A stretch of DNA of 64,000 nt from Azolla caroliniana. Lineage: Eukaryota > Plantae > Polypodiophyta. Positions 6,402 to 64,000 of this stretch are shown here, piece by piece (the stretch's first letter is position 1; each line of letters begins with the position of its first letter). Under the pieces are notes generated by a model. The model did no database searches, was not told the DNA's origin, and was given only the letters and a program-made list of their open reading frames with translations. The DNA lies in contig JBHGNT010000001.1 of NCBI GenBank assembly GCA_043228905.1, forward strand, positions 29,760,001 to 29,824,000, given 5' to 3'. The translations under genes and the position numbers were made by a program.

Positions 6402-8645
6402 CTAATTAGCTTGGCTTCGGAATGCCTGTTGCAGCTGGAGGACCTGCTGTCTCTGTTCTGGAGGCAAAGAATTAATCTGTTCGTGCGTCAAATTCATAAC
6501 TTGTTGCAGCAATACCTTCTGTTGCTCTGCCTCAATAGATGCCTACATGAGAAAGGGATCATTAAAGCATCTTTTGTAGCCACAAGGGTGAAAGTGAGCT
6601 TCACATGCTTGTCTTTAGAAAGAGAGTCCTAACTTCTAGGAAAACATGCATAGGTTTCCAAATTTTAATAGAATATCCCTATCAGTACAAAATATACCAT
6701 TAAACAGGGGTACTCTAGTGGCTTTTTAAAGCTTAAGGGTATTGGAGGAAATATAGATATTTTGGTGTTTTCCCTATAATAAATAGATATAAACCTGTGG
6801 TGGTTGCAGTTGTTGAGGTTGAGATTGTGCCACCTGCTGCCCATATCCTTGAGCATGATTTAAGGGAGGTGGTGCATTGGCAGGAGCAGCTGCATAAGGA
6901 TGATGTCCAGGTGCCACATGGCCAATAGGTGCAGCTGCACTAGTCTGTGGTAAAGCCAAAGACCCACTCGATGCCATTTGTTGATTCCATATTCCTAAAG
7001 GAGCAGACCCACTAGGAGAACCTAGGCCTGGGTGTGAATGACCACCACCCAATGGTAAAATGACACTTTGTGTGTTCGCATTCATATCAAGTCGAGACAT
7101 CTGAAAAATAATGAAATTCTCATATGTATGCTTAAAATTTTAAAAAAGGGGCAAAGACTTTCTCAAACCTGAAACATATGCTGCGGCAATGGCTGATTAG
7201 GCAAAGGTGGATGGATCTGCTGGAATGGCATACCAATGTTTGTCTGAGAGCCACCTTGTTGCTGCATCAATAATAGTTGAAACATATAAAGGTGAGAGAA
7301 ACTAAGAAAACAGATACATATTTAATATAATTTTAGTCCACTGGACGCCTTGAAGCCAAATGGCTCACAAAACTGACATAACAAACAAAAGCAATACACT
7401 TGCGAACAAAAATAGGTTTTAAATCAATGTAATACTGGTTAGGAAGAATAGATATGCCATGCCTGATAAGGAAGTTGCGGATGATAAGGAGGACCTTGCG
7501 TAGGGTGAAAACCCATACCCTGTGAATGCTGATGTTGAGGCTGTGATGAAGGTCCCAAAGGCCGTGGCTGTTGTGGTAAAGGTGGTGTTGGTGGTTGCAT
7601 AGGTTGAGGTGGATGTGACTGTGGATGTTGTATCGGTGTAGATGAAGACATTGATAATGAATGTGATTGTATCATAGTGGACCGAGGACTAAGTTGCTGA
7701 TGAATTTGAATGTTTTGCTGATAAGGAAAGGAGGATTGACTAGGTTGTAATGCAGCACTTGGAGCTTGGGACAACATAGGCTGTTGTTGAAACGGGAAGG
7801 ATGATTGTACAGCTGGTGGTTGTGTTGTAGTGGTTGCTTGTCCTTGAGGCAATTGAACTTGCAGTTGTGGTAGCACTTGTGGTTGAGTTTGCAGAGGAGA
7901 TATTTGTGGAATGGGAGGAGACTGAGTTATTACAGTTCTTACTTGAGTTTGACTAGACGGCACCTGCCCCAGTGGAGCCTGTGCTGGTTGCGAAGTTTGA
8001 GCTTGCAGACTTGCAAGAGGTGACTTCATATAACAAGAAAACTAATTAGAATAGACAGTTGTCCTATGCTGCATGAAAGCTAGTTATGCATAAACGTAAG
8101 AATTGTTCGAAAGTACAACCAGCAGATGTATGAATGTGTCAATGTAACAGAAAACTAGTTTAGTTTCTCACCGTCTCTGGGGCTCTCACCATACCTAACA
8201 TTATCTGAGCCTGTAAAACAAAGAGAAAGCATTAATCAATGCCAAGAATCACAAAGATATTATGATTTACAAAGAGAAGTAAATGATTGATTAACTAGGT
8301 ATCTAGATGTTAAGCTTGATTTAATCTTAGTACTCTATTTACCTACCTGGAAAAGAGTTTTAGTTAACTGGGGGTTTGCAATTAGGATTTGGCGAGCTTG
8401 CTGTTGATTCTGATGAATCAAATCCTGCAGATACAGAAAATAAGAGATAGGCGTAGCCAGCTATAATATTTCAAGAACAAAAGCCAAAAATCACTTGCAC
8501 TTGCCTTCATCTGAGAAAGAAGCTGATATAATTGGTGCTTTGACATGTTAGCTAGGTTACTAGTTATTGTATCAGCAGTTACACTTGATGCCTCCATTCC
8601 TCCACTACCCGGTAGGCTCACAGTTCCTAAATTGGTGTCATTCAT
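6402..8645 (-). CDS. ESP1: CstF64-like protein lacking an RRM (ESP1-type): hinge domain, Pro/Gln-rich linker and CstF C-terminal domain; about 7 coding exons
   Basis: Spliced reading: NLANMSKHQLYQLLSQMK|DLIHQNQQQARQILIANPQLTKTLFQ|AQIMLGMV (hinge; exons 8645-8505, 8424-8347, 8210-8172). P/Q-rich exons follow (~8040-7460, ~7260-7170, 7100-6795). The last exon reads EQQKVLLQQVMNLTHEQINSLPPEQRQQVLQLQQAFRSQAN* with the stop at 6402-6404. I saw no RRM upstream; the start codon is uncertain. Confidence 0.8.
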
Positions 8646-9715
8646 TATAGAAACTAGGAGTAGCGGTCTACAATTGCCTTCTGACCTGCAAGCTCAAAAA
8701 ACAGTATGAAAAACCTGCTCTCATAAAACAACGATCTCAGAAAATTCTAATGCAGCACCATTAGTAGTATTTTATTGGATGAATCCTAACAAAACAATCC
8801 CTTCTATTATATGCAGGAAAACCCAAGCATATCAAAGAAAGTTAGCATGTTCCGGATTGAGGAAATTAGAGAAATGTCATTATTCTAGTATTGTGGATAA
8901 TTAAGCTGCTTTACCCTCTTTCCACCATCAAAGATTTTAAGCAAATAGAAATAATTGAAACAGAGTAAGTGTGCACCAGTTGTGTTCTCTCAGTAGGCAG
9001 ATTATAAGCTGTCATCATGCATACATATTTGGGGTAAGTTATGCATAAGTTTGCAAATGGCCCTGTGATATCATCTTATCACAGCTAGAAACTCAAACTT
9101 GATAGTGCAATTCTACCACTATAATGATAATGGAAATTTCATTAACTTGTCGTTCCCACACCATACAAAATCTGATTTCAGTTTCTCAGCCAATAAAAAC
9201 AGCAATGTAGTTCAATAACTTGAGGTTCGCATCTTACTGAAACAACTAGCAAGAGAAATATCCCATTTCCTATGACTGCATACCTAAATTGACCTGAAAA
9301 TCAAATTGGGTTACAGATTTTTTAGAATATAATGAGTGTTACATAACATAGACAGAGGTTTGCAAAAGTCGCAGATAACCTCTTTAAAAATGGAAAAGAA
9401 TTTTTTTCCATCATTGTGGTTGGATTACTGTGGAAAGATTATTGCTTTATAATTAATCAATAAGCACTATAAAGATTTTAAAAAACTTGCAGTAGGAAAT
9501 TCTGCAGAGATCTAAACAAGATAATAACATGATGTGGTGAAAAAACATAGACCTTGACAGAAAACGTCACTGAAAGATGTGGTCATACGTCCATATGACT
9601 AGACTTTCCATTTTGAATGCAACTTGTGAATGAAAGAGAATGTATTGATCTCTTGGGAAGATAAAATTATATACAAAACATGGCACACTTAAATGTATCT
9701 TTCTAAGTTCATATG

Positions 9716-9833
9716 CCTAAGTTCTTCATAGCTTGAAAGCAAATATCATATTTCACCACTCCCTTCAAGTACATACACCTAAGTTCTTCATAGCTTGATA
9801 GCAAATATCATATTTCACCACTCCCTTCAAGTA
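9716..9833. repeat. Two-copy ~62-bp tandem repeat in the ESP1-like 5' intron
   Basis: cctaagttcttcatagcttga(a/t)agcaaatatcatatttcaccactcccttcaagta occurs at ~9716 and ~9778. Confidence 0.85.
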
Positions 9834-12594
9834 TCATAAACATTTAAACTTTATGGATAGTGAAGTTTCCCAGATAAATAATATAAGCTCCATACTAAAG
9901 ATTGCCTCAAGTTAACAGAAAAGAAAATTTAATTGCAATGAAACAATACCTTAATACACAACATTCTGAACAGAAAGCAGAAAAAGTATTTGTACATATG
10001 TAGGAGGTAACTAAAGGAGTTGAATAAAAAAGTGTATTTCATATGAAGTAGCGCACATTGTTGAAAACCTAAGTATTCTCTTCTCCCAGGTTTATTTTGA
10101 TGACCCACCAGGAAAAGGAAGCTAACCAGCTTCAAAAAGGTATTTTCTGGACCTGTCCTCTGGGATGCAACAGAATTAATCTGCACTTCCAACTGTTGAC
10201 AAGAAAAAAGAGACCACGTTAGTTTTGAACAGGCTCAATATTTTGCCCAAAAAGAAGAGAAGAAAAGGCAGTGTAATCAGCCATATGTTGGTTAAAAAAT
10301 AACATGGAACAAGGACTGACTCCTAAGAAAACCAACAAAAGAGGTTGAACTTTACCACGTGTATCACATTAAAATAGAAAACGCGGTCTAACATATTAGA
10401 TTATCTACCCAAAACATTAATTTAGGCTTTTGAATAAATTTCAATGATCACACGAAGACTCCTTTTGTTACAATGTTTCAAGGAAGAGCCGTGGATTTTA
10501 GAAAGTACTGGGTTAAGTGTGATAAAATGATTCTTTCATTAAGAGATTCGGGTAGCATTACCTTAAATGTGATATGAACATTCTTTAAATCCTCATATGA
10601 TACATAATCTGAACACTCTTTAACCTGAAGGTAAGTGTATCCTAACTATATCTTAAGGTTTACATCATTACAAAAATATAGAAAAAAACGTAAAAAAGAG
10701 CTATAATTGTATCACTTCTAAATAGTTCCAATTCAACAATTAACTAGGAAAGAGAAAAAAACGTGAGGAAATACATCAATATCTAGAGGAATATCAAAGA
10801 TGTTATGTTCATGAATGAGCATGGGACATATTTTTGAGTGTTTGCTAGGTCTAGCTAGACAAATCTTTACAGGATCCAAGTTTCTGTTGTGCATCAACAG
10901 GTCTGTGTATCATGGTCACATCCTTGATCTCATTTTTACATCATATCATAATCTTGGCCCAGGGAATAAAGAGTGATTGCAAACTATACAAAAGAAACGC
11001 CGCAGCAATGGCAAAAGTGGTAGTCAAACAAACTTCAAAACTATTAGAAAAACTTCGCTGCTGAAGAACTGCTGAAGAACGGCCAGTCCCTGCAGGAATT
11101 GACTGTTTTGTCCTACAAATAAAAAAACTTAAATTCTACAAAATAGCCATATGCAACACACAGAACATTGGCAGGACCCAAGCATCAAAGACAGAACAAG
11201 GTGTATCTTTAAAACCTATACAAACCCGTATAGTTTGAAACTCCCCTCCATATAAGCTCACATCCCCATCACATCATTCTCAATTCCAATTTAAAACTGT
11301 GACTTGCATCCATGACAAAATGGAGAAAAGGAAAGTTCGCATAAATTGCGGCCATCCACACAACCCTTCAGCCTCACTTTTTCTCAATCTGGTGTCAAAC
11401 TACATTCCTCCCTCACATTGACGTTAAATAAAACTTTTAAACCTAGCCTCAGCTTCCAGCAACAGATTGATTGTTTAAACAGTGTAAATATGTGCTTTCT
11501 AAAAAGGAATCAAGATTACATCTCCTAGGCACTATTCAACTTCATAACTAATATCTAAAATCTAAGAAATAAATGAAGGTTTTTCATATAAAGATGGAGC
11601 CAGTTTAGTTGAGTCAAGGTTGGGTTACTAATCATGCTTACTCAATAGTGGCAACAAACGAAACACTCCAACACCCACATACATAATGCTGCCGAAATGC
11701 ACACAGAAAGTTTTAGAACACCCAAACTTTGTAAGCAACAACTCTCTAAGAGATAATATATCGTTTACGAATTGCTGGTTTGAACATTATTAAAATTAAG
11801 AAAAGACGAACTCATATACTGTCAAAAAACATCTCACGCTCCTATTCTATTCAACCATTTATATGGTTGTTTTCAAAGGTTTTTACATGATTTCTTTCGC
11901 ATTGTCAATTAACCCTCTCTCACTTTCTAAATAGTTTCTGAATGCTACGCTTGTAAGGAAAATGCGAACGTAATATGTCACTCTTGTGCATAATGTCTTG
12001 TTCATGTGGCGATCGAGGCCAACGTTGAGAGAAAATATCCCAGGAACTGTCGATTAAGCTCCTCACCTATATTCGTAATATAACACAACACCAACCATTT
12101 TCTTCTTTATGACCACATGAAACGAGCTGCAAATTTTATGTGAAGTTAAAATCGAAGCGTATAACTGAATCAAAATACAGAATGTATTTAACTTAAACCT
12201 AAGAATGTTTCCTTCCATTTTTCACTTTGAGGGAGAAAACAAGAATGATTTCCCGTATATCAAACACAATCTGAACAAGAAATCACCTTTATTGACGAAA
12301 GAACATAAGCTTATTTGAAAGAAGATGAAGAAAGATAGGACTTTTAGGCTAAAAAAAGAACACGTGAAAAGAACGAGAGAACGGGATACGCAGAAACGAA
12401 ATGATAATGCAGTTTAAAGAGGCTCCATGAATTTGATGCTTTAAAGGAGACGGGATCGAGGACGAACAGAAACAGGTAAACATACATTGGTTCGAAGCGA
12501 TTCGTGAGCGCGAGCATGAAACAAGAGCAGGAAACAGACCGAGAGAGAGAGAGACAGAGAGGGAGAGGGAGAGAAGGATTCTCTGTGTACTGAC

Positions 12595-12700
12595 CTTGAC
12601 GTTGACGTGTGTGTCGGGAGGGATGAAGAAAGCGATGGTTCTGCAGAAGACCGCAGAGCTGGAAATCGCGAGGGAGGGACCAGATTCGAAGAACCCTAAC
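12595..12700 (-). promoter_or_regulatory. Putative non-coding first exon and core promoter (telo-box-like AACCCTAA) of the ESP1-like gene
   Basis: GC-richer, ATG-free segment ending in the donor CAAG|GTCAGT (12595/12594), followed by a CT-rich intron start. aaccctaac lies at ~12692. It is conserved in the paralogous copy upstream of PAC2. Confidence 0.6.
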
Positions 12701-12820
12701 TGTGTATGTATATGTATGTATCATGTATGTATATATGTATGTATATATGTATGTATGTATGTATATGTATGTATGTGTGTGTGTATGTATGTATATGTGT
12801 GTATGTATGTATAATGTATG
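12701..12820. repeat. (TATG/TGTG)n microsatellite; insertion target of the MULE, continuing at 20366-20404
   Basis: Direct reading of tgtatgtatatgtatg... on both flanks of the element. Confidence 0.9.
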
Positions 12821-13160
12821 CTCGTTGCTATCCTGCACCAAATCATAAAGAGGGCTGGTGAGGGAATCACGGCCACAGACGGTGCAGGTCGCCTAGAGGA
12901 AGGTGCGTGCGATCTGCACCGTCAGATTTCGATAAGGAAGAGCGCGCGAAAAAAAAAGTTGTCAGAGGTCACCCAACTCTGAGTCGATGGTCACCCAACC
13001 CTGTCAGAGGTCACCCAACTCTGAGTCGTTGGTCGCCCAACCGAAATTGGTCACCCAACTATGACTGTTGCAAGTTGCCCAACCGTTTTAGGTCACCCAA
13101 CCCTGACAGTTACAGGTTGCCCAACCGATTGGTCTCCCAACCGTTGCAGGTCGCCCAACC
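12821..13160 (+). repeat. Left TIR plus subterminal GGTC(A/G/T)CCCAAC motif cluster
   Basis: About 160 bp of inverted match to the right end, then roughly nine ggtcacccaac-type motifs at 12967-13160. Confidence 0.9.
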
Positions 13161-13211
13161 AAATGTATCATTCCAACCAAAATCTTCAAATAAGCTTGTT
13201 AATTACCCTTA

Positions 13212-13490
13212 AAACTTACAATAACATATCAAATAGTCACAAAATTCAACCTTAAAATACTTAAAACCGACGATCTTTACCATACTTATGTTAAAACAAA
13301 TAATCATATTAAAACATAAAAGTTGAAAGTTAAAAAACATTTAAAACATAAAACGAAGAATGTAAACTTACAATAACATATCAAATAGTCACAAAATTCA
13401 ACCTTAAATTACTTAAAACCGACGATCTTTACCATACTTCTGTTAAAACAAATAATCCTGGCAAAACATAAAAGTTGAAAGTTACCAAAC
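13212..13490. repeat. Two-copy ~152-bp direct repeat 3' of the transposase stop
   Basis: aaacttacaataacatatcaaatagtcacaaaattcaaccttaaa...cttaaaaccgacgatctttaccatactt occurs at ~13212 and ~13364. Confidence 0.9.
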
Positions 13491-13492
13491 AT

Positions 13493-15157
13493 TTATGGCT
13501 CATCCGGAGATGATGGCAAGATGCGACCACAATTCTTGCAACAATCAACATTTGAGTCCCTTGATCTAAAGGTCAAGGCATCGCAATGCAAGCATCGCAT
13601 TTTATCTGTCGCACATATTGGCAACCGCCTCCTAGCTCGACTTGCGCCTCTTTGCATTTTTCCTGTGTGTGCCTTGGAAGTGTTTGGGGAGCTGCCAATA
13701 AGATCTTGTGAAATGTTGATTGATGCTCCCCTTTTTGCACCAATTGCTTGCTTACGCCCTATGGATCCACGGTCTTCTTCGTTAGTTGGTTTCGGTGCAC
13801 CTGTGTGATACACCAATGTCTCACTTGTTTCTTGAATGGACTCCATACATGCCAAAATTGTTGCACAATCGAGGGATTGTAACCCTTGCTTAAAACATTG
13901 AATAGCCCCCTCAAGCGTTTGTAATTTCGACAAACATTCCTCCACTCGTGATGTTATAGGGTTTGTCTCCTCGACTGGTTCTACCTCTGTCTCCATTTCC
14001 GTCTCTGTGAAATGGTCATTGCGCATATAGGTTGCATGATCTATAAAAGGCAATGACCCACATAGATGTGGCATGTGCCTCTCAATAATCATCCTGATGC
14101 CAAGTATATGCTTACATTTACTCGCAGGGTCGTGGCAATCACAATATGAACATTGGAGCGATACATTATACCATACATCCGGTTTTGTCAAGCTCAATAT
14201 TTTAAACCAATATCGAGGCTCGTCCACAATATGCATTGTCGCATTATTAGTTTCATACCTCTCTAGTAGCCTTTCGGCCTCTTTAAGTCTAGTTGTTTGA
14301 TCCCTACAATTTGCACGTGGTGCAAATCTACCACTCTCACATATTTCTTGTCGTTGCTTGTACCATTCAATAACAGTACCCCCGATGCAAGTGCCAGTTT
14401 GACTGTCCCCGATTAAAACATGCACAAGATCGGTAATTGATCGGTTTATCCTCCCTCTTAAGGCAGTATATTTGATAAACTGCCAATGTCTCTCCACAAG
14501 ATTGGTAGTGTCAACATGTCCGTAGTTGAACATTCTACCAAATTTGGGCCACAGTTTCCTCCACACACATGTCAAGCCACACCATCCTCCTTCTATATAT
14601 TGCCAAACACCTGGCTTGTTTGCATATTCTACCTTTAAGTCCTCACATTGGGCATTGAATGTGGATTCCGTAATGCATTGCATGAGTTGGCACATCCGAT
14701 TATAAAGGTGGTTTCTCTCACTTGCACTTACCTTTGGCAACAAGTTGTCCAACCATGCTTTTTTTGCATGGAAGTGACACAACAAAAGTCGACAATGTGT
14801 TTGCGACCTTTGCCCATTTGTAACTATCCAAGATAATCGGTCTGTTGCAACCACATTACTTATGGCATTATACGATGTCCAACTTTTATCGATGACTATG
14901 GCATTTGGCCTCACATTGGGCATCCGTGCAAATATGACTCTCAAGCAAGTTTCTAAAGCTACTTGCTCATGGTTAGACCCCTTATCAGAACTACATATCA
15001 TGTACCATAATGGGATACCAACTCCCATGGCATTTGGAGCCACAACTGCATATAATGGCAAGCCAAATTGGTTTGTTTTAAACGTGGAGTCGATTGCCCA
15101 AGAGTTGTTTATCGACAGTCGCTCACACATCTCTAACATCCATTCATCTTGGAGCAC
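13493..15157 (-). CDS. MULE/MuDR-family DDE transposase with SWIM zinc finger and C-terminal Cys cluster; N-terminus out of frame with the upstream ORF
   Basis: WAIDSTFKTNQFGLPLYAVV (D1), AIVIDKSW (D2), LLLCHFHAKKAW (CxxH), TTNLVERHWQFIK (E), CDCHDPASKCKH (SWIM), CLHC...CKNC. Confidence 0.9.
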   Translation of the reverse strand: MLQDEWMLEMCERLSINNSWAIDSTFKTNQFGLPLYAVVAPNAMGVGIPLWYMICSSDKGSNHEQVALETCLRVIFARMPNVRPNAIVIDKSWTSYNAISNVVATDRLSWIVTNGQRSQTHCRLLLCHFHAKKAWLDNLLPKVSASERNHLYNRMCQLMQCITESTFNAQCEDLKVEYANKPGVWQYIEGGWCGLTCVWRKLWPKFGRMFNYGHVDTTNLVERHWQFIKYTALRGRINRSITDLVHVLIGDSQTGTCIGGTVIEWYKQRQEICESGRFAPRANCRDQTTRLKEAERLLERYETNNATMHIVDEPRYWFKILSLTKPDVWYNVSLQCSYCDCHDPASKCKHILGIRMIIERHMPHLCGSLPFIDHATYMRNDHFTETEMETEVEPVEETNPITSRVEECLSKLQTLEGAIQCFKQGLQSLDCATILACMESIQETSETLVYHTGAPKPTNEEDRGSIGRKQAIGAKRGASINISQDLIGSSPNTSKAHTGKMQRGASRARRRLPICATDKMRCLHCDALTFRSRDSNVDCCKNCGRILPSSPDEP

Positions 15158-15837
15158 CTCAATTGAACATCTATCAACGTATCATCAACCCTATGTGCCT
15201 CTATCTTGATCACTTCTATGGGTCTAGACTTTTTATATTTCACGACACTTGTCCCCTCCATGTCAGATGGAGTTAACCTCGACACAACTTGACAACCGCA
15301 TTGGTCAATCACTGCTTTCACATACGCACTAGGGATCCCATAGTCACGAAGGTCATTGGACCAATTTCTCTTTAATTCTGTCAGAGTACCTGTCAAAGAA
15401 CGGTGCGATGCGCCACAATGTGACGCCAATACTATCTCCCTCCATTTCTCTACGTGCGTAATCTGAAGATGAGGCGATGCCTTAAGGTGTATTGCATTCT
15501 CATTCATAAGCGTGAGACGACTCTTCATGCGCCTCCATGCATGTAAATTAAGAGGTGCCCCCCTTGCGAGTGTGCTTAATATTTCAAATGTTACCGTAAC
15601 TTGACCTAATAAATCTTTAAGCATTAAATCGTACATACCTCTAGTGAACGCAATATACCTCGCCGAACAATACATGAAGGGATCAACCTCCTCCGCCTCT
15701 TCTTCGGATGAAGCCGACTCATAGTCTTCGGATGTAGACGAATCCAAGTCATCGTCGATGGTTGCGGAGTATGGTGATGCATAACCATCCTCAGAATCAT
15801 ACAAGGACGTGATTAAATCTATTTCGTTGGGATTCAT
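15133..15837 (-). CDS. Probable N-terminal part of the transposase gene: acidic N-terminus plus integrase-type H2C2 zinc-binding-like motif
   Basis: ATG-initiated 234-aa ORF overlapping the transposase ORF by 25 nt in another frame. Contains EIVLASHCGASHRSLTGTLTELKRNW...IPSAYVKAVIDQCGCQ. Confidence 0.6.
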   Translation of the reverse strand: MNPNEIDLITSLYDSEDGYASPYSATIDDDLDSSTSEDYESASSEEEAEEVDPFMYCSARYIAFTRGMYDLMLKDLLGQVTVTFEILSTLARGAPLNLHAWRRMKSRLTLMNENAIHLKASPHLQITHVEKWREIVLASHCGASHRSLTGTLTELKRNWSNDLRDYGIPSAYVKAVIDQCGCQVVSRLTPSDMEGTSVVKYKKSRPIEVIKIEAHRVDDTLIDVQLRCSKMNGC

Positions 15838-15844
15838 CTCGAAT

Positions 15845-16325
15845 GAATCTAACTAATCTGATTAAGAATCTAACTAATCTGGTTATAAGAATCTAACTAA
15901 TCTGATTATAACTGATTAAGAATCCCCCTAATATGATTAAGACTCTAACTAATCTTATTAAGAATCTAACTAATGTGATTAAGAATCCCCCTAATCTGAT
16001 TAAGAATCTAACTAATCTTATTAAGAATCTACAAAATCTGATTATAACTGATTAAGAATCTAACTAAGATGATTAAGAATCTAACTAAGATGATTAAGAA
16101 TCTAACTAATCTTATTAAGAATCCCCCTAATCTGATTAAGAATCTAACTAATCTTATTAAGAATCTACAAAATCTGATTATAACTGATTAAGAATCTAAC
16201 TAAGATGATTAAGAATCTAACTAATTTGATTAAGAATCCCCCTAATCTGATTAAGAATCTAACTAATCTTATTAAGAATCTAACTAATCTGATTATAACT
16301 GATTAAGAATATAACTAATCCTGAT
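15845..16325. repeat. ~21-bp minisatellite (aatctaactaatctgattaag variants) directly upstream of the transposase ATG
   Basis: About 20 reiterated units, with recurring variants (aatccccctaatctgattaag; ctgattataactgattaag). Confidence 0.95.
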
Positions 16326-16613
16326 TAGCTTTTAGAGATTGTGCAAAATAAGAATGTGATTAAGACGCAGAATGTGATTATAAGACAGATATTGGAGATG
16401 CAATGAGCTATGATTAAAATGACAGAGAATGGTTTAAAGTGACAGAGAATGTGATTAATTTACATGTTAAGATGACCGTTTTTCTGGCCGTTTACATAAC
16501 AGGTTGGGCGACCTGGTTGGGTGACCAAAACAAAAGATAATTAATTTTAAAAGGTTTGGGCAACCTGGTTGGGTGACCAAAACAAAAGATAATTAATTTT
16601 AAAAGGTTTGGGC

Positions 16614-17113
16614 AATACCACAACTTGCGATTGGTTTAAAACCATACATTCAGAACATCCACAATAATTGTTGGGAACAACATTTCCATTAACAAGTAAT
16701 CGCGTTTACAATACCACAACTTGCGATTGGTTTAAAACCATACATTCAGAACATCCACAATAATTGTTTGGAACAACATTTCCATTAACAAGTAATCGCG
16801 TTTACAATACCACAACTTGCGATTGGTTTAAAACCATACATTCAGAACATCCACAATAATTGTTGGGAACAACATTTCCATTAACAAGTAATCGCGTTTA
16901 CAATACCACAACTTGCGATTGGTTTAAAACCATACATTCAGAACATCCACAATAATTGTTGGGAACAACATTTCCATTAACAAGTAATCGCGTTTACAAT
17001 ACCACAACTTGCGATTGGTTTAAAACCATACATTCAGATCATCCACAATATTCAGATTGAGATAAATAATTGTTGTAAACAACATTTCCATTAATAAGTA
17101 ATCGCGATATACA
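16614..17113. repeat. 96-bp tandem repeat, 5 copies, 3' of the Ulp1-like gene
   Basis: The unit aataccacaacttgcgattggtttaaaaccatacattcagaac...aagtaatcgcgtttac starts at 16614, 16710, 16806, 16902 and 16998; the fifth copy has an insertion. Confidence 0.95.
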
Positions 17114-17214
17114 ATGAGTCGATTCTCACTATACAAAATTTTTGGGGATTCCAAAATATAGTTACAACATCAGCTCTATAGCCAAATCTGTGCTGAAAAC
17201 AACATTCCCAAAAT

Positions 17215-19216
17215 TTACAATATGGAGCCACCGGTCGCAGGTGCAAATCCTAATACCGATCGTGCCCACTCGTCCACATGAATCCGAAGTGAATCCACTT
17301 CGCGTTTGGTGAACCACATCTCTGTGCCCTGTAACCAAATATGTATAAGAACACATCTATACACAATCCACATGAACAAGGAATTGCAATTACACTTACA
17401 AAAGTCGAAGATATCCATCCTTGTAAGAACTCCCTCACCAACATTTGGATAGTCTTCATCACATAAAAGCCACAATCCCAACAATTTGGCTGTGTTGGGA
17501 TGTGCAGTACCTGATGTCGACCATTGGGCACAATGGTGTGGTCTGACGGTTCAGATGAAATTGTCCGAATCGCCAACTCTGCCATTCTCCGCATGTTGTC
17601 TGTTGCTGGTCTGTTCAATGGATCGCAGAAGACTACTTTGCTAGTTAGCTTAGAAGCTTGTTGTCGCATGGTGAACCACAAGTTCCAATGCCCATCAAGC
17701 ACGATCGGAATGAACGTAATCTCACATTGCGCAACTTTCTTAAGGATGTCTTGCTCCTTCATTGCCTGCTGGTGTAGCTGCACCCATAGTGGGTCGACGA
17801 TGGTGAAGCGTTCTGTCACCTCGAGTGGCAATGAGTATTCCATCCACAACGTGAATAAGGTCATAGTCCATGTCGATGCCATTTCACGGCTCTTGCATAT
17901 GGTCTCAAGATCTGACTCGGTAACATCAAGGGCCATATCGAGACGTGGGCAAGTTAGCTGGTACCTGAATGCATGGAAATATGTAGTTTTGAGTAGGTAA
18001 ATCACACTCCATGTCAATTAGTAAGATACTAGTTTGTATTTCACTTAAACCCTACCTGGAAAAGTGTTTATTTGGGGTTTGAATCCATAACCTTATGCCC
18101 TTGCCATGTTGAATTTGAACTATGGCCACATCCGATGCAGCGTCATCTGAATCTGATGTTAGGGAAACAACATCAGTGTTTGACTCGACCTCCTTCCGTC
18201 GGATTGGCATTTTCGGTCGTCTCCGTCTCGGTGGAGTGGACACACCACCCTCAGATGGGTTTTGACTCTCATCCACATCCGTGGACACACCCTGCGGTTG
18301 GGTGGATATCCCCGCCTTTTTACACTGTTTCACCACAATAAGACACATCTTATTATCTGAATTTTGCCAATAAACCCTCCAACAATCTGAAATGAAATCC
18401 TCACTCATACTTACATAAGAATCCAAACCAGCTGCTATCTTCTTCGTCAACATCTCCAAACGCTCATCCTTATTGGAGTCGTATATAGTCATCTCTTTGT
18501 CCATAAATCGTGCCACGAACTCTGCCTGTGTGTCAAGACGGAGTTCAGCAGGAATAGAGTTGTATTTCGAAACAACCCTAACCTTCAACTTTCGGATATA
18601 TTTTTGTCGATTTCTGTAGTACTTGATTTCCGGGTCCATGAATCTTTTGAGTGATCTTTGACGCTCATAACTGTTAAAGCATGCCCCCGGAATACCCTCC
18701 TCCTCCTCTATACGCATCCCTCGTGGTAGGACTACGTCTATTGCATGTTCTCTGCGTAAATGTGACTCCATGTCACTTTTTTTCCGATACCACCTTGGCG
18801 AGAGGCGGCAAAACTCAGTGTAGATACATGCACGAGCCTTGTTCCCATTTGCATCTCTTCCAACCTTATACAACAAGTCGGGACAAGGAGCAACTGTTCC
18901 TTCTGCACCTGTGTTACATATTTAAGATTGACATAAAGATTGGCATAAAGATTGAGATATTGCAACGACACCAAATCCACATACCATTTGGAGGAGCATC
19001 TTGGTCCATTTTGTCCCCACTCGTACACATGTCGGCTCCTCGACTTCGCCAATGTCTTCTAACGAAGACCCTTTAACAAATCACGAGTCAACATACATGC
19101 ATCAAACCCTAAACCATTCTTGGGGGAGATTGGTTCGTGACATACCTCTCTTGAGTTGGATATATATCACTGTTATCGAAATCCCACCAATCTTTGTACT
19201 TGGAGTTGGAAGTCAT
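17215..19216 (-). CDS. Transposon-borne six-exon gene: C2H2-like zinc finger and helical/basic region fused to a Ulp1/C48 (SUMO-protease-like) domain
   Basis: Phase-consistent GT-AG splicing: MTSNSKYKDWWDF...QER|VFVRRHW...APPN|GAEGTVAPCPDLLYKVGRD...ACIYTEFC...MESHLRREH...GLDSY|CKKAG...KHFS|RYQLTCPR...FIPIVLDGHWNLWF...VFCDPL...QPNCWDCGFYVMK...SSTF|GTEMWFTKREVDSLR...GSIL*. The H/D/Q/C catalytic set is intact. Confidence 0.8.
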
Positions 19217-19834
19217 CTACCACCATTCAAGTAATCAAACATTTTTTGATTTTAGTACTCAAACACACAAAATATCAAGTTTAAGCAAGCAAATCATTAA
19301 AACCAACAATCAAAATATAGATGATTAAATCAAGTTTAAGCAAGCAAATCTAGTGAACGCAAGATCATAATAAGTTTGATAGGCCTCACCTATAGTGTGG
19401 ATAAGAGTGGTTACATCCTCTTCTAGATTATGCCTTCAAGATACTGGCTGGGATTAGAGTGGCTGGAAATCAACAAAGCCTTGCCTATTAGATCCTATTA
19501 TACTTCACTTATGGTTCGCTTATCTTCTTGTCTATAGTGACTCTAAACCCTAAAGCTTAAACATGTCTATGCATCAATATGGTCCATACAATCTTGCTTG
19601 TTTTCATTATTATTAAGAAGCGATGAATATAACATTGTGGAAGATATAATAACAAGGAGCATACCTGGGAATAGTGATGGAGGAGATCGATTTGTGATGG
19701 AGGAGATCGATTTGTGCAGCCACAGACGATTTGTGATGGAGGAGCTCCCACCTCTTTCCCGGCAAACCCAACCTGTCAATCTCGTTTGAAAAAATGACAG
19801 ATTATGACAGGTTTAGGGCTTTTATAGACATCCC

Positions 19835-20365
19835 TAAAGGAGTCTCCCAACCTGGATAAACAGGTCTCCCAACTGTTTTAAAAATCAACAGTTGGGTGAC
19901 CTGCTTCTTTTATTGAGTTTGTTGGGTGACCAACTCAATATAAACTCTAAAGGAGTCTCCCAACCTGGATAAACAGGTCGCCCAACTGTTTTTAAAATCA
20001 ACAGTTGGGTGACCTGCTTCTTTTATTGAGTTGGTTGGGTGACCAACTCAATATAAACTCTAAAGGAGTCTCCCAACCTGGTTAAACAGGTCACCCAACC
20101 TATTTAAAAATAAACAGTTGGGTGACCTGCTTTTTTTTTTGAGTTGGTTGGGTGACCAAATCAACCAAAAATTTAAAAAAAAAATGGTTGGGAGACCTCT
20201 GACAGGGTTGGGCGACCGCCTGCGCAGCTTTTTTTTTGGCGCCTTCTTCCTCATCCAAATCGGACGGTGCAGATCACACGCGCCTTCTCTGAGCGACCTG
20301 CACCGTCTGTGGCCGCGATTCCCTCACCAGGCCTCTTTATGATTTGTGTCATAATAGACACGTCG
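19835..20365 (-). repeat. Right subterminal 113-bp tandem repeats (about 2.7 copies, motif-rich) and right TIR
   Basis: The unit taaaggagtctcccaacctgg...gttgggtgaccaactcaatataaactc starts at 19835, 19948 and 20061; TIR ~20200-20365. Confidence 0.9.
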
Positions 20366-20874
20366 ATAATGTATGTATGTATGTATAATGTATGTATGTA
20401 TGTACATAGAAGATATTATAGAATCATATATCATATACTATCAAAACATGAAAGCATTACTACCCATATGTATATCCAATTGTGTTGGAATCCCCGATAT
20501 CGTAAAAATTTGAACAATGTCTCCAACTCGTCATTTAGACCATTTTGAACATACTAAGGGAAAAATACCCATTGTTGAGGCCTCAAATAACAATGGGTTA
20601 AAACTTGTCGAATATCTAATAAGTGCTTCCAAATGATATGTGCTATAGGACGTTTACTGAGCCTATGTGTATTGTCCTCCAACGAAATGGTGCAAACGAA
20701 GCACTTACTTCACCCTAGTCCTCGTCTCTTTTAAGGTTGAACCTAATGGTAGCCCACTAATCATGACTTGACTCTCCCCGTATGATTACCTTTGCATGAA
20801 ATGAAAAATGGGAATGCAAACCACATTGCAATATGGTGATAACCCAATATATTGATGCCATTGCATGGTGATAC

Positions 20875-20919
<45 letters not shown>

Positions 20920-21241
20920 GGTGACCTATAACAAGTGTGTACAATGTTGTAACAACCTATCAACCCAAGGCACAACATTTGTTTCCAATGGCAAAGATTC
21001 ATCCAAGAATGGTATATCTTGTAATTCCTCCCAAATAAATCCATAATTTGGGAGAATACATAACCGTCATTTGGCATCTTCAAATTCCAACAAGCTTTGA
21101 GATTCATTATCAACCACATCTTCCAAATCTACAACCCCCAATCAAAATAAACGATTGAATTGAGATCTCGATTTCTCTTTTCCATGCCAATCCAACACTC
21201 AAGAAGAAACGAGCAATTCATTTTGTAATGAACTACAAAGG

Positions 21242-21933: not shown

Positions 21934-24607
21934 ATTTATTTATTTATTTATATTTATTTAGTCAAGATTCACCGTGGTATTAATGAAAAGAAACATACAA
22001 TAAATTATAACCCTCCTACCCACATCAATCAACATGTCTAGTAGTGGAAACCCTCATGCATGGTCCTTTCAAGACAAGGGGCAGAAAAAACCATATTGGT
22101 GGAGCATATCTCCAATTTATTCTGTCCCCAAAAAAGGTGAAGACCTCTACCTTTTTCCAATATTCTCGAAATTGTTGTTGGTTGCGAAACACAACATCAA
22201 GCTCGCCATGTATTGCCTCATATTAACCTCTTAGAGTATGTAGGAGCATCAACCATATCTCCTTGACTAACTCAATCACATTCAATTTGACTTTCTGAAA
22301 TACACACTTGCATCTTGCCTTCCATAATATCCAAACTACTAAAGAAGATATCATAGACCAAACATTGTCCTCTTCCAAACAATGGATTGGTGTAGTATAA
22401 GAAGCCTCTAATAAATGTTTTCCATCAGAGAGGAGAAGAAAATCAACATAGTCCCTTTCATAATTCAGTATTTCTTAAACCAACCTTCCCCATCTCACAA
22501 AACTCATGTGTACACATGTTTACAATAAATAGGATACAAAATTCTCAACATTCTTTTCCATGTTGTCCTAGTTATATGACATACCCATAAAACATGGTGA
22601 ACCGTTTCACTTGGAAAACCACAACTGTCACATTTTAAATCATGGCAATGCCCCCTCATCCATTACTTCACAGGAATGTCGTAATGTACCAATAGCCATC
22701 TAAACAAGACAACTTTTCTAGGAATTTGCAAGGCCCATAACCATTTCCAATAAGAATTCAACCAAGAGTGTCGTACATTACCCAAGCTCCAAAATTTAGA
22801 TGTTGTTGGCGTAACAACCGCGCCTCCTTAGCAACTCTATACCCATTTTTACTAAGTACTAAAAAAATGGTATTTGCTGACCTAGCATTCCTTGTGCTGA
22901 TATGCTTTGCCATTTCCATTCGTTGGGATCCCACAAAAGTTTATCAATGGGCTTATTCTCGTAGGCCCACAATTAAAATAAGTTGTTTATATCATTTGGG
23001 TGTGGATTCAACATCCATTTTTTTTTGTTTTTCCACAATATATGAATAGACAACATACTCCCTTGAGTTACAACTTCGTGTTCCATAAGGATAGAATGAA
23101 GCCGTTCAGAATGCAAAACATTGAAATAAAGATAGTCACGAGAGTTTTTATAGCCCTTGCCCCCAACAAGACATGTAAAGATGAAAACATACCATACCAA
23201 TATAGACTACTTTGAGAAGGTTGAAAGGAATACATCATAAACACTAATGATTTTTGCATACATAATGTTTCCACCCCAAATTGTGCGACAAACCTGGGTT
23301 TTGTTTTCCATCGTCGAAGAAGAAAAATTCAACCAATTCCTTACTGATCCAGATTCTCCTTTATCAAAATCAGCCCATTTCAACCTAGTTCTTTTCCCTA
23401 ACATTCCCCCCCTCCTTTGATAAAAGCAATGGGTTCATTATGAGGGGTTGGCACAACCATTCATCCATACATGATGGTAGAGATTGAACCTAGTTATGTT
23501 TCAAATCCCACCATGCCTTCATGATACCCCTAAAAAACTTATTCTGGCGCAAAATAACAAGGGAATGATTAAAATCTCTTAAAAACCACCATTTAACACT
23601 ATATTGCCAGTTGCCACATGTAGAAGGCATAACCTTAACCATTTTGTGCCTTAAGATTTTTTTCCATGGCTCCCCACCTGGCAACAAGCCTCTTATAATA
23701 AATTTTCCCAAAAAGGCCTTGTAATAGAGGATCAATCACTACAAGACCACCCTCGTCCTTTGGAGCTGTAATAACTTTCCAAGATACTTTGGCTCTCACA
23801 TATGAACCATCTTTAGATCCCCAGAGGAAATTTCTAATAAGCCTTTGTACTTGTGATAAAGCCGAATGTGAACACAACCAAGCCAACAAAATGTACCCAC
23901 ATGGAAGCCAACAATACTTGATTGGCAACAACAACCCGACCAGTCAATGACAATTTAGTAGCATTCCAATATAACAATTTCTCCCTTATAGCAAGCAACA
24001 AAGGAGCTACATGATCTTCCGGTGAAAGGTTGATTCCTGCTTGACATCCCAAGTATCTTACAAGTTTACCATGCGGAGTTCATAGAAACCATTCCTGTGG
24101 ACACCACAAGGGGTTTATTGTGGTACTTACACAGAACCCCACCAACTTATTCCAATTAATAACAGTTCCAAAAGCATAGCAAAAAGTATCAATAGCACCC
24201 GTTGTACTCTACACATATTATTGTGAGAACCTTGCAAATACAGGGTTGTATCATCACCAATTTGACAATCCACAACTTGCTCCTTTAACCAAGTTCATTG
24301 TAGTCCTTTTATATTCTGGACATTACTTATAAGAAAACTACTAAAAGTTACTCAAATCATCAAATATAAAAAAGGAGCTAATGGACATCATTGTCTCACT
24401 AACCTCGAATTTGAAAATGCTTGGCCTACCTCTCTAGCTACTAATACCCTACTAATAGTTGAGTTTTAAAGAGTGGATACAACCGTTAGCCATTGATTAG
24501 GGAAACCTAGCTTTTCCATAGTGCCCCACAAAAAAGACCAATCTACCCTATCATAAGCCATTTCAAAATCCAACAACAAGATAGCTAAATTCTCTTTCCT
24601 TTCTTGT
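21934..24607 (-). mobile_element. Degenerate 5'-truncated non-LTR retrotransposon (L1-like RT and C-terminal region)
   Basis: Broken RT peptides LLLDFEMAYDRVDWSFLW, REKLLYWNATKLSLTGRVVVANQVLLASMW and RNFLWG...AKVSW...PKDEGGL. (TAAA)n tail at ~21934-21960. TSD aat(c/t)caccaaaacct at 21919-21933 and 24608-24622. Confidence 0.85.
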
Positions 24608-46140: not shown

Positions 46141-47255
46141 AGATCCAATTGCAAGAGGAAAAAGAAATCAATGCATATATCCTGATGTTGTGATGAATCA
46201 CTGGAAAAACAGAACAGTTCCTAAGGACCGCGGGGGCTGTCTCTTAATGTTAAATCTGCATCTAGATTTGATTAATTTATGCAATTCTGCATACGTAGAT
46301 GGAATTCATACAGTGAAACTGTAGTTTTGTATACATTTTCCCTATGCTTGAAACAAACCATTCAAATATTTGGCAAAAATACACCCAATGAAGAATGAAA
46401 TAAACTATTCAAATACTTTACAAAAATACAAGCTGAAAGGAAATGAACTATCCAAATACTTAACAGAAATACAAGCTGAAGGGGGATAACATCCAATCCA
46501 ATCATTCATTGACGAATTGTCACAATAAACCCCACTTCTGTAATAGTGCTGATACTGCGATAGTTAATTCCACATCTATACATAGAGCATATATATGATA
46601 GACAAACATATGCATCATATATATACGTATGTACATAAATGAATGCATCATGTACATGGGTATTTATGTATTTATGTATGTATGTATGTATGTATGTGCA
46701 TATGTACATGGGTATTTATGTATGTACGTATGTAGGTATGTAGGTGGCTATCTGCCAACTATATAATCCAATTCCCATCTTAATCTTCAAAAATATAGTT
46801 CCCAATTTGGGAAAACGTGAATATAACCCAGTCAATCACCTAGTACAAGTAGCTGTGACAAGTGTAAGGATTAGAACGTTCTGTTCCTTCCTTGCCTGAG
46901 AATTAATCCCTTAATAAGGTCAGTTAACCCTAATCCAAAATAAGGCAAAAAAAATGCAGGCGTTTTATCAATGTGTTTTTTTCCGAACAGTTTTAACCCT
47001 AATCAAAAAGAAGAGAGAAAAAAATGCACGCGCTTTGTCAATGTCTTCTTTTTCGAGCAGTTGCTGTTACTGCAGAACAAAATCAATGGCTGAAATTTGA
47101 GCAATTACATATGGAGGTTTCAATTTTACAGTCAGAGGACGTCCCTACACGCAAATCCTAACCTTAATCCTAACCCAAAAAAAACAAAACAGATTTGAGA
47201 TAACATATGAGATCAACAGAGTAGAAGAAGGCAGGATTTACTCACACGAATCCAT
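44541..47255 (-). CDS. Bet1/SFT1-like Qc-SNARE; absent from the ORF track, 5' exons uncertain
   Basis: Exons ~45232-45176 GDVDEEIEGLHSRVGNLKR, ~45077-45021 VALAIETEAKYQNELLSQL and ~44699-44541 ESTVLKAQAGIKNTMKRLNKSIVQQGSNHLVHVILFALLCFFLVYLWSKVFG* give a SNARE helix plus tail anchor with GT-AG junctions. Confidence 0.85.
45274..45655. repeat. Two-copy ~207-bp intronic tandem duplication
   Basis: atgctgatgacctgttatttagaccttg...gtacaacgaaa...taggtgtatcaga...tctttcagaagtaatatatatgca occurs at ~45275 and ~45482. Confidence 0.85.
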
Positions 47256-47340
47256 CGGACCACTGCTCCTCCTCCTCCTCCGGGAATTACATATGTTTCC
47301 AGCGTAGATCCGCATGTGCGTTCTTTTGTATGTGATTTAG

Positions 47341-47890
47341 TTCTGCTTATACACGGTACATAACGTGTGTTTTGGTCGAAGCATACGCATACGTGTATAC
47401 ATACGGTAGTAAAATACGTGCGGATGCGGATGGGTATGTATACGTACATATATATATGAGAATATGCATATGTAAATGTATGCGAATGCATATATGATAT
47501 ATATACATATATGTATATGTATATGTATGTATACGTATACAATTGTGTATACTTATGTCGATGCGCGTACGTATATATACCATATGTATGTCGATGCGTA
47601 TACACAGACAAGTATATATTTTTGTTCTGCTTATACACGGTACATAACATGTGTTTTGGTCGAAGCATACGCATACGTGTATACATACGGTAGTAAAACA
47701 CGTGCGAATGCAGATGGGTATGTATACATACATATGTATATGAGAATATGCATATGTAAATGTATGCGAATGCATATATGTATATGTAAATGTATTTATA
47801 CGTATACAATTGTGTATACTTGTGTCGATGCGGGTACGTATATATACCATATGTATGCCGATGCGTATACACAGACAAGTATATATTTCT
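47341..47890. repeat. Two-copy ~284-bp alternating purine-pyrimidine-rich tandem repeat upstream of the SNARE gene
   Basis: ttctgcttatacacggtacataac occurs at 47341 and 47625; both units end gatgcgtatacacagacaagtatatattt. Confidence 0.9.
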
Positions 47891-49111
47891 GTTTAAGAGG
47901 AGAAACACAATTAACATTGACACACTCTAGCATGGCTAAGCAGCACATACGTACATGTACAATCTTATCCGCACCACACCCTTATGGATCTAGGACATGT
48001 GTCATGTCCACCCATCGTGCTTTTGTCCCTCCCAACTGTGATGTATCTGCTTGGATTTTGAGCAAGGTTCATGATATAACTCAGACGTGTTACACTACCT
48101 CCTCTTATTGCTCCTTTCAAAACTAGAAACATGGCTTTGTTATGTCATCTGAACATAACATTGGCCCGTTATTACTTCATGACATGGTAATCCACCCCCC
48201 TTGGATAAAAATCTACAATGCATATGTTTCCCACTTTATATTATCGGAATCTCGATTAATTATCAACCACCAACCCAACCCACCACTTGTAGTAATTTGA
48301 CATTTAAAAAACAACGCTTGTGATATCTTTCACTTTGTTGATAGAGCTTCCTTTGTGGTTGCATTATATGCTCAATGAACACCCCAACAATGTCTAACAT
48401 TTTCGATAATGGATTTTTGCGTCTCCATTTTGGGGGTTTTCACATGTCATTTGTAAACAAAAGAGCAATTTCCATCATAAAAGGAATGGAACGACGTATC
48501 ACCTATTAGGATTGCAAACAAAGCAAGTACTTTCATTAGTCGAAGATAAGACACAAATTATATGCATAAAAAGTTTGTCGAAACAACCATAGTGTGTATA
48601 TACAAATTTACAATCAACAGAGTAATGCAAGCACATACAACAAATAAGAATCACAAAACCCACTATAAATTTGATACCTTGTACTTTCAAGTGAATTCTC
48701 TCTAAAATACGACACAAATTCTCTCTAAATTATGACATACTCTATCTTTCTTTCTTGAATACGTGCAACTTGTGAATTCCTATGCTTTGAGAGCATCACC
48801 ACCTAAGGTATCATGGGAACTCATTAACTAAGCAATACATTATCACCATAGATGGATTGCAGCATCAATGCTTCGGAAGATAAAACAATAGATTATTGGG
48901 GGGAGAGGACCTTGGAATGGGGTGTTGGCATCATCATGGGGTAAAAGGTCAAAAGGGGTATTTTAGGAAATAATGAGAACAGAGGGGAGGGGTATTTGAT
49001 GGGAAATAACAAAAATCCCCCCAAAGTAAAGAAAAATCAGTGTAGCGGGGGATTCAGAATTCTGTTTTTGTCCGCTTGTGTCTCTGCTCGTGGGTGTGTG
49101 GCTGTTCAGCG

Positions 49112-63716: not shown

Positions 63717-64000
63717 GGCTGGCTGCGTCGGAGTTCTTCTGTCACATATGAGAAATTGTTGAGAGAGAGAGAGAGAGAGAGAGACTCTGAGAGATTTGGT
63801 TTTAAGATTTTTTAAAAACAAAAATATAAAAAGGGGGAGGGGTATTTTGGGAACATAATGTATGTATGTATGTATGTATGTATGTATGTATCATGTATGT
63901 ACAAAGAGTTTTGTGAGCGCTTTTTATTTTCTGTTTTTTCGGTTCATCGTAGTTTTTCCCTTGCCTTTCAGTTTTTTAAGTGCCCATCCATCCATGGACA

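Follow-up and report, generated by a model that had tools for sequence, protein, structure and literature searches.

What reads a short DNA word that a transposable element repeats at both of its ends and upstream of its genes? The question is raised by a window of 64,000 nucleotides from the Azolla caroliniana genome (contig JBHGNT010000001.1, positions 29,760,001 to 29,824,000; all coordinates below are positions in this window, the whole stretch analysed), in which a Mutator-like element (MULE) of 7546 bp, without assigned strand, occupies positions 12820..20365. The element is a non-autonomous deletion derivative of a two-gene family of about 8.1 kb, in which a transposase gene is accompanied by a second gene, here called gene 2, that joins a zinc-finger-like N-terminal module to an Ulp1-type protease domain. 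An earlier note on this DNA had seen in it a candidate self-contained anti-silencing system, pairing a DNA-binding protease with arrays of its own binding sites. Our analysis points to an element-encoded binder, because a word specific to each subfamily changes in concert at three separated sites, and it tentatively favours the gene 2 protein for that role.

The word, GGTYDCCCAAC, occurs 23 times in the 64-kb window, always within the element, compared with 0.09 occurrences expected and with none of 100 shuffled sequences reaching 23. As the earlier note had claimed of a short motif, the matches gather at three places, in clusters of 9, 3 and 11. Cluster 1 (12967..13159, plus strand), at the transposase end, consists of nine copies in 42/22-bp units. 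Cluster 2 (16503..16578, minus strand), upstream of the transposase, has three copies within a 52-bp unit; cluster 3 (19863..20217, no strand assigned), upstream of gene 2, has 11, most of which belong to a 113-bp x 2.9 array. The copies at the two ends are inverted relative to each other and lie directly inside the terminal inverted repeats (TIRs), in units that are unlike (42/22 bp on the left, 113 bp on the right). The internal cluster is found in the related loci L003-L005 as 12-13 copies in another array (40/122/161-bp); the word is kept and amplified at this internal site, which is not needed for transposition. All three clusters show a concerted shift of the central base, with a TCA:TCG ratio of 14:5 in the window and 3:25 in L005, counts in which the copies are not independent. 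The word also contains TGACC and CCAACC, which we take to be W-box-like and MYB-like cores.

To follow the word through the family, we identified 67 related loci and inferred a tree from 30 of them, chosen by length, together with four named proteins. The resulting tree comprises clades A/A', B, C, E, D, G and F. Each of the subfamilies A-E has a word of its own, which occurs upstream of genes as well as at the ends, and on either strand: GGTYDCCCAAC in A (23 copies in the window and 23 in L005), GGAGCCCGAC in B (8 in L006/L007/L008), CTAACCCGGG in C (13-15 in L009/L010), TAGCCCGGCT in E (10-13 in L011/L012) and AAGTARACC in D (9 in L036), with a D-like word in clade G. Cross-counts of the words between A-E are 0-1, except where an A-type end is nested in L008. 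Sister subfamilies multiply their motif by different tandem units, so that family-specific motifs amplified by tandem repeats that differ among relatives, as in VANDAL and KAONASHI elements, are found here as well. While the word switches, the outer 120 bp of the TIR remain 70-80% identical across A, B, C and E, and an inverted GACGGTGCAG pair within them is near-invariant; this pair, GACGGTGCAG..CTGCACCGTC, is a candidate transposase site.

Relatives have kept both gene 2 and the motif clusters, which was the check for family conservation that the earlier note had proposed. Gene 2 lies beside the transposase, in tandem as in the window, in L001, L003, L005, L009, L015 and L028; L004 retains its last exon only, L065 and L066 hold fragments, and in L036 and L038 it is convergent with the transposase, in what we take to be a MuDR-like layout. 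In the latter two loci, which belong to a distant clade, the motif clusters are direct, not inverted, and no TIR was found on the contigs. In the clades with gene 2, the commonest complex 10-mer is present in 7-21 copies in 11 of 12 loci. In sister clade F, gene 2 was found by hidden Markov model in none of 11 loci, including the complete locus L019, and the commonest complex 10-mer does not exceed four copies, under a filter that leaves out three-letter words. In X1, contig depth is 173-305 for the near-identical pieces and about 20 for those that have diverged, a hint, though no copy number, that several nearly identical copies exist.

Gene 2 itself is intact, with six exons bounded by GT-AG on the minus strand that encode 532 amino acids without an interrupting stop; the second spliced gene with zinc finger and Ulp1 domain that had been claimed is borne out as a spliced gene with a zinc-finger-like motif and a PF02902 match (E 3.8e-8). 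Exon 1 (19146..19216) opens with the ATG at 19216, directly after the acceptor of an intron in the 5' untranslated region (UTR), and exon 2 (18985..19070) has GT-AG borders and is in frame. Exon 3 (18415..18908) encodes a C-x5-C-x15-H-x4-H finger (about 18870-18745) and the helical module, and exon 4 (18056..18324) an acidic/basic linker with RRRRPKMPIRRK, which by eye resembles a nuclear localization signal. Exon 5 (17400..17964) encodes the Ulp1/C48 domain, with His at 17690, Asp at 17624, Gln at 17492 and Cys at 17474, and exon 6 (17215..17328) carries the stop, its acceptor being seen in contig joints of one run guessed to be RNA. In that run, GT-AG joints cover the last intron (17399-17329), the first donor and two 5'-UTR introns (contig joints 19216/19390, 19216/19665 and 17327/19145), and the remaining introns are predicted. 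The joint 17327-19145 ties the exon 1 donor to the last exon acceptor, as either a short out-of-frame splice form or the transcript of a deleted copy. A five-exon model was rejected, since the 90-nt in-frame intron 18414-18325 is 92 nt in L003 and L005 and its borders are conserved in L015 and L028. A TATA-like box (19820..19826, minus strand) lies just downstream of motif cluster 3 and is kept in L005.

A search of 1.84 billion representatives yielded 72 relatives (E<=0.001) of the N-terminal module of gene 2, and the finger ligands are conserved (C in 29/36, C in 34/38, H in 41/48 and H in 41/47). AlphaFold models the module as a beta-beta-alpha finger followed by helices (mean pLDDT, the predicted local confidence, of 87). 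By eye, several distant relatives carry a GRP/GRR AT-hook-like stretch after the finger, and in Adiantum the module is fused to PF02902 (P0222, which clusters with other Adiantum records, six in all). The module could be assigned neither to a Pfam family nor clearly to a known fold by searches with profiles, against PDB sequences, in the Atlas and by structure; a rank-9 Atlas match (16% zf-C2H2 at 0.88) is no more than a lead, and the lack of matches does not establish a new fold. All the subfamilies aligned retain the catalytic His, Asp, Gln and Cys, and the best PDB sequence match of the protease is yeast Ulp1 (E 1.1e-7), followed by SENP7/Ulp2. The protein is thus predicted to be a protease of SUMO or another ubiquitin-like protein, and a second gene with peptidase C48 and its catalytic residues is what C48/KI-MULEs in the broad sense carry. 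Gene 2 is under purifying selection: relative to L005, the ratio of nonsynonymous to synonymous divergence (dN/dS) is 0.19 in the module and 0.32 in the protease. Synonymous divergence (dS) from L005 is 0.32-0.35 for gene 2 of the window, 2-3x that of the transposase (0.10-0.17, taken from L001), which suggests an exchange of modules between subfamilies or a chimeric contig.

The expression check that the earlier note had called for gave a few sense-strand spliced transcripts from family members. In three polyA runs from one study (about 12 million records each), 20, 32 and 32 reads, mostly sense, fell over the element, which shows weak transcription of the family and not expression of the window copy. 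Among the listed holders of the element none is on record as RNA, which is evidence neither way.

Taken together, these data led us to propose that the gene 2 protein would bind the 11-bp word of its family through the zinc-finger-like and helical module, that the predicted SUMO protease would thereby be brought to both ends and to the transposase promoter, that it would remove SUMO there, and that the ensuing relief from silencing would keep the family transcribed and mobile. We regard this reading, which has gene 2 act in the manner of VANC/KIU or Spm TnpA by binding the word and tethering a deSUMOylase there, as falling a little short of probable. Anti-silencing as the effect of gene 2 would follow by analogy, in that the fern element may work like KIU or TnpA. 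Gene 2 is favoured as the binder because the clusters are absent from the clade that lacks it and because the conserved outer TIR is separate from the word. The wider proposition, that ferns evolved sequence-specific anti-silencing independently of VANC/KIU, by fusing to a SUMO protease a previously undescribed zinc-finger/helical DNA-binding module that co-evolves with clusters of 11-bp sites, in at least four protein-word pairs within one family and with deSUMOylation as the anti-silencing step, strikes us as rather unlikely; if true, deSUMOylation at bound sites would explain the repeated capture of Ulp1 by transposons. Were gene 2 the binder, sequence-specific anti-silencing would have two or more origins, not all of them in flowering plants, in which the same enzyme was combined with different DNA-binding parts. 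The family provides a compact test system, with a 532-amino-acid protein whose catalytic triad is intact, an intact twin of the window copy and four to five natural subfamilies whose 11-bp words differ.

As judged from its sequence, the fern element is a MULE and a C48-MULE and not a VANDAL, because it has TIRs, two genes and no VANC-type profile. Only two genes were found in the window copy, L001 and L005, in place of the three genes and non-TIR ends of VANDALs. Profile searches for a VANC-type domain (DUF1985/PMD are, we presume, the relevant profile names) gave no Pfam match in 15 members (E<=5) or 10 distant relatives (E<=1), and fold searches gave no match at E<=0.001 or Z>=8, with the finger part barely covered and a VANC structure perhaps absent from the structures compared.

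The published systems, compared here through parts of the cited texts, resemble the fern element in different respects. KIU, a fusion of VANC and Ulp1, anti-silences cognate VANDALs, the role of its protease being unexplained (PMC13317346, a review); KAONASHI/KIU elements are non-TIR, three-gene (vanA, vanB, vanC) elements of eudicots with a VANC module (Hoen 2006 and Sasaki 2022 in the summary of PMC13317346), in contrast to the TIRs, two genes and zinc-finger-like/helical module of the fern element. VANC, which structurally resembles MAIN (PMC13547354), binds short motifs that are multiplied in tandem repeats varying among relatives (PMC5735166). The pairs VANDAL21/VANC21 and VANDAL6/VANC6 thus share with the fern family dense short motifs, multiplied in tandem and proper to each family, but their words differ (YAGTATTAY and AGTTGTCC/AGTTGTAC) and VANC sites lie in introns and upstream regions, whereas the fern sites lie at both subtermini and one promoter (PMC5735166). 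C48-MULEs, many of them with TIRs, are widespread in angiosperms (PMC4948706, PMC12973397) and, like the fern element, are TIR-MULEs whose second gene carries peptidase C48 (PMC4948706; active TIR elements in PMC12973397); neither a fern clade nor an N-terminal module of this kind nor motif clusters are mentioned in the accessible parts of these accounts (PMC4948706, PMC12973397). Ulp1 recurs in Ginger and in animal Mutators (PMC2836005), and its role in transposons is called unknown in the parts consulted of PMC13317346, PMC2836005 and PMC4948706.

Outside the C48-bearing elements, Spm TnpA is an accessory protein that binds family-specific clusters of a terminal 10-bp motif and activates cognate copies (10.64898/2026.08.24.746577), a likeness in which binding by the fern protein would be by analogy. 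Unlike the fern element, Spm is a CACTA element, and TnpA is transposase-derived and carries no protease (10.64898/2026.08.24.746577); the fern ends are GCTCG/CGACG and its transposase is of the MULE type, in place of CACTA ends and a TnpD-type transposase. The type-2 foldback MULE Muta1 and AtMu1 share with the fern element a conserved terminal motif, subterminal repeats of an 11-12-bp word and a target site duplication (TSD) of 9 bp, but they are single-gene elements whose transposase binds the repeats, and in Muta1 these repeats have a regular, symmetric arrangement, the sections available describing no internal cluster (PMC5499845). Ulp1-bearing TIR-MULEs and a VANC-Ulp1 anti-silencer are hence already known, and the concept is less new than the earlier note implied. 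For the fern family, its module and its TATG targeting we found no published description in a literature consisting mostly of papers outside subscription.

If the transposase were the binder, it would contact the 11-mer through its FAR1/WRKY-GCM1-like domain, for pairing of the ends and activation of its own promoters, and gene 2 would be a separate helper, acting perhaps as a target tether, a MURB-like transpososome cofactor or a deSUMOylase of transposase or repair proteins. We consider this quite possible without calling it likely, and it would make a clear natural case of transposase-motif co-diversification. It is favoured because of the subterminal position of the word, the Muta1 and AtMu1 precedents, the fast divergence of the DNA-binding region and a fit of ranks, and these, with the observations that follow, weigh against gene 2 as the binder. 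The 11-mers are inverted at the ends, directly inside the TIRs; binding by the Muta1 transposase rises with the number of subterminal repeats (PMC5499845); and the AtMu1 transposase alone hypomethylates and activates cognate termini (10.64898/2026.08.24.746577), as far as the consulted parts of both papers report. The DNA-binding region of the fern transposase is 55-64% identical between relatives, compared with 83-90% for the core, and diverges in step with the words. The motifs of A and B are more alike than those of A and C or B and C, and finger likeness ranks B-C (57%) above A-C (52%) and A-B (46%, with B by proxy), so that the motif ranks fit the transposase DNA-binding region slightly better than the finger; the trees tie the word to neither protein over the other. 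L064, a gene-less miniature inverted-repeat transposable element (MITE), keeps a repeated word of its own, and L011 and L012 have 8-13 motifs on contigs that lack gene 2 and are missing their 3' ends. The association of gene 2 with motif clusters is a single evolutionary contrast in which L019 is the sole complete locus of clade F, and L016 repeats a GA-rich 9-mer 8 times, outside the 10-mer filter. A/G/T variants of the central CG fit decay of methyl-CpG, and the sites may have been methylated; the RNA reads are sparse, mostly 90-99% alike, as from other copies, and bear an organism label unlike that of the best DNA holder. Binding by the transposase sits poorly, in turn, with the clade that lacks gene 2, whose transposase is intact and has a domain of this type although dense complex clusters are absent, with the more distant clade D, which keeps both gene 2 and clusters, and with the presence of a separate conserved candidate site in the outer TIR.

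The word could also be bound by a host factor, or could arise incidentally where unstable subterminal DNA slips; the arrays would then be neutral and gene 2 an ordinary conserved C48 cargo. The copy number of the arrays does change far faster than single bases do (7 of 8 indels relative to L001 fall in repeats, against 17 substitutions, and some may be assembly collapse), four arrays are without the word, and the intergenic arrays of B, C and E gave no blastn match to those of A. Neither a fixed host factor nor drift would predict, however, that subfamilies from what appears to be one host group differ in the word, and do so at every one of its sites together, and we judge this explanation improbable. 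There is finally the prospect that chimeric short-read contigs or a misassembled window have created the picture: the relative loci are short-read contigs that may collapse or mix copies, which also counts against the role proposed for gene 2; L001 and L005 have no matching TSDs and so would have ends from different copies; no single contig in four DNA runs spans the element; and the dS of gene 2 from L005 exceeds that of the transposase. Against this stand both TIRs and the perfect TSD of the window copy, the recurrence of the layout in separate assemblies (L001, L003, L004, L005, L009 and L010) and pieces of 270-640 bp with 0-6 differences in the DNA runs, and an artefact on this scale appears very improbable indeed.

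The transposase of the window copy matches the MULE profile PF10551 (E 1.4e-9), which is also above cut-off in 17 of 17 relatives, and has the residues D443/D510/E642, a CxxH and a SWIM-like CxC..CxH at its C-terminus. The DDE core and SWIM-like finger described in the earlier note are hence present; the break of the gene by a 580-bp deletion had been missed. The junction (15158..15159, minus strand) shows GGT microhomology and a frameshift and removes residues 228-420. Upstream of it lies the N-terminal part (15159..15837, minus strand), with its ATG at 15837 and 225 of 226 residues identical to the intact P0055; the C-terminal part (13493..15158, minus strand) encodes the DDE core and the SWIM-like finger in a frame other than that of the start. 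These two open reading frames (ORFs; 15837-15159 and 15158-13493) correspond to residues 1-227 and 421-974 of the intact 974-residue proteins, and the lost residues include a weakly FAR1-like CxC..HxxH DNA-binding domain (FAR1 at E 0.025-0.13, below cut-off, in 5 of 17 intact relatives). The intact twin L001 is 99.8% identical, with 17 substitutions in 7008 aligned bases and 8 internal indels, and comparison with it shows a deletion and rules out an intron as the cause of the break. Loose ends of the intact form were seen at 15158 in three of four DNA runs, and the deletion junction itself was not found among the matches listed for these runs. Without an intact transposase ORF the window copy is non-autonomous, and "self-contained" was wrong for it; the family is young, with intact members, and a transposase reading the conserved outer TIR would be supplied to this copy in trans.

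The nearest named relatives of the transposase are from Adiantum (37-53% identity), followed by Ceratodon and Branchiostoma, and none were found in the viral and prokaryotic genome contigs searched. Its N-terminus (window 15837-15290; P0055 residues about 130-185) has an H-x4-H...C-x-C arrangement that is kept in the Ceratodon relatives, has no Pfam match and by eye presumably resembles the integrase-type H2C2 zinc-binding motif. A complex prediction for transposase residues 45-420 and the gene 2 module, run without alignments, scored 0.00, which speaks for neither protein.

The TIRs claimed by the earlier note are present, with arms (12823-12961 and 20225-20362) that are 86% complementary and a blastn alignment of 164 bp at 84%. 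The repeats span 12820..12985 at the transposase end (plus strand) and 20205..20365 at the gene 2 end (minus strand), for a length of about 140-165 bp. They are flanked by perfect copies of ATAATGTAT, a TSD of 9 bp, at 12811..12819 and 20366..20374 (plus strand); long TIRs and a TSD within 8-11 bp are as expected of Mutator elements and MULEs. The 10-bp TSD noted earlier is a literal match of the flanks, but its last G is a base of the element. We set the element at 12820-20365 and the TSD at 9 bp because relatives end in the same G/C as position 12820 and because the MITE L064 has a 9-bp TSD, with one mismatch, under ends like those of the window element. This MITE (L064:116-621) is 505 bp long and has the TIRs of the family and a GAGTAGGGCG-like repeated word.

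Of the tandem arrays, four had been reported; they exist, within a total of seven repeat regions. Three of the seven contain the 11-mer (the left 42/22-bp, the 52-bp and the 113-bp regions). The others are a 152-bp duplication downstream of the transposase (13212..13495), a 21-bp array with a higher order of 115/136 bp in the transposase 5' leader (15845..16318) and a 20-bp x 3.6 array in the gene 2 5' UTR (19674..19744), all with zero 11-mers, and a 96-bp x 4.6 array downstream of gene 2 (16613..17050), with units 99% identical and only the half-site CCCAAC. A word common to the 21-, 96-, 152- and 20-bp arrays was rejected, as pairs of them share AT-rich 6-8-mers only, and so was an ATCA leader motif across subfamilies, which exceeds all 100 shuffles in A/A' only (3 of 9 leaders).

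The element is inserted in a (TATG)n microsatellite (12703..12819, resuming at 20366-20404), as found by repeat scan and missed in the earlier note, and relatives show the same preference, a separate and checkable trait. At least three TATG/CATA units lie in the 40 flanking bases of 12 of 22 junctions, with the head-to-head L005/L008 junction counted once and L012 left out for lack of flank, and of 6 of the 13 junctions whose flank is 400 bases or longer. As background, the corresponding figures are 1.0% for 5000 random 40-mers of the window, 61 of 6666 for 40-mers tiled over the loci and 7 of 134 for contig ends. Such enrichment of insertion sites in a microsatellite is typical of the microsatellite-targeting MULEs MuTAnT (PMC4486113) and SaTar (PMC5907723), which in the parts consulted also have ends abutting family members, as at the L005/L008 junction and in non-nested SaTar arrays. 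MuTAnT targets (TA)n (PMC4486113) and both groups of families are mostly non-autonomous, whereas the fern family has two genes and targets (TATG)n at about half of its junctions, the flanks being TATG/CATA and not (TA)n repeats. At the junction itself (L005:104-108 and L008:3987-3991), A-type and B-type ends meet head to head, one junction seen in two assemblies.

Mu elements prefer the starts of genes, and part of the TATG enrichment may be this usual preference, because each of the two flanking host genes identified has TATG tracts close to its 5' end. One is a CSTF64-like gene (6405-12690, minus strand; CSTF_C at E 1.5e-11, CSTF2_hinge at E 3e-6). The apparent 5' region of this gene, by eye GA/CT-rich and with a telo-box, stops some 130 bp short of the insertion, which probably places the element in the promoter of the gene. 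The other is a BIG/Sec7 gene at the right end of the window. Further TATG/CATA tracts lie at 63858-63901, just upstream of the BIG/Sec7 gene start, 46660-46742 and 20871-20916, and such tracts may be marks of promoters in the host genome. To the right of the element, highly repetitive DNA covers 20416-21200, and 22000-24100 holds what by eye are degraded ORF fragments like those of a long interspersed nuclear element, two of which were tested and had no Pfam match. Farther on, a duplicated TA/TATG-rich block at 47213-47926 contains long open frames of low complexity.

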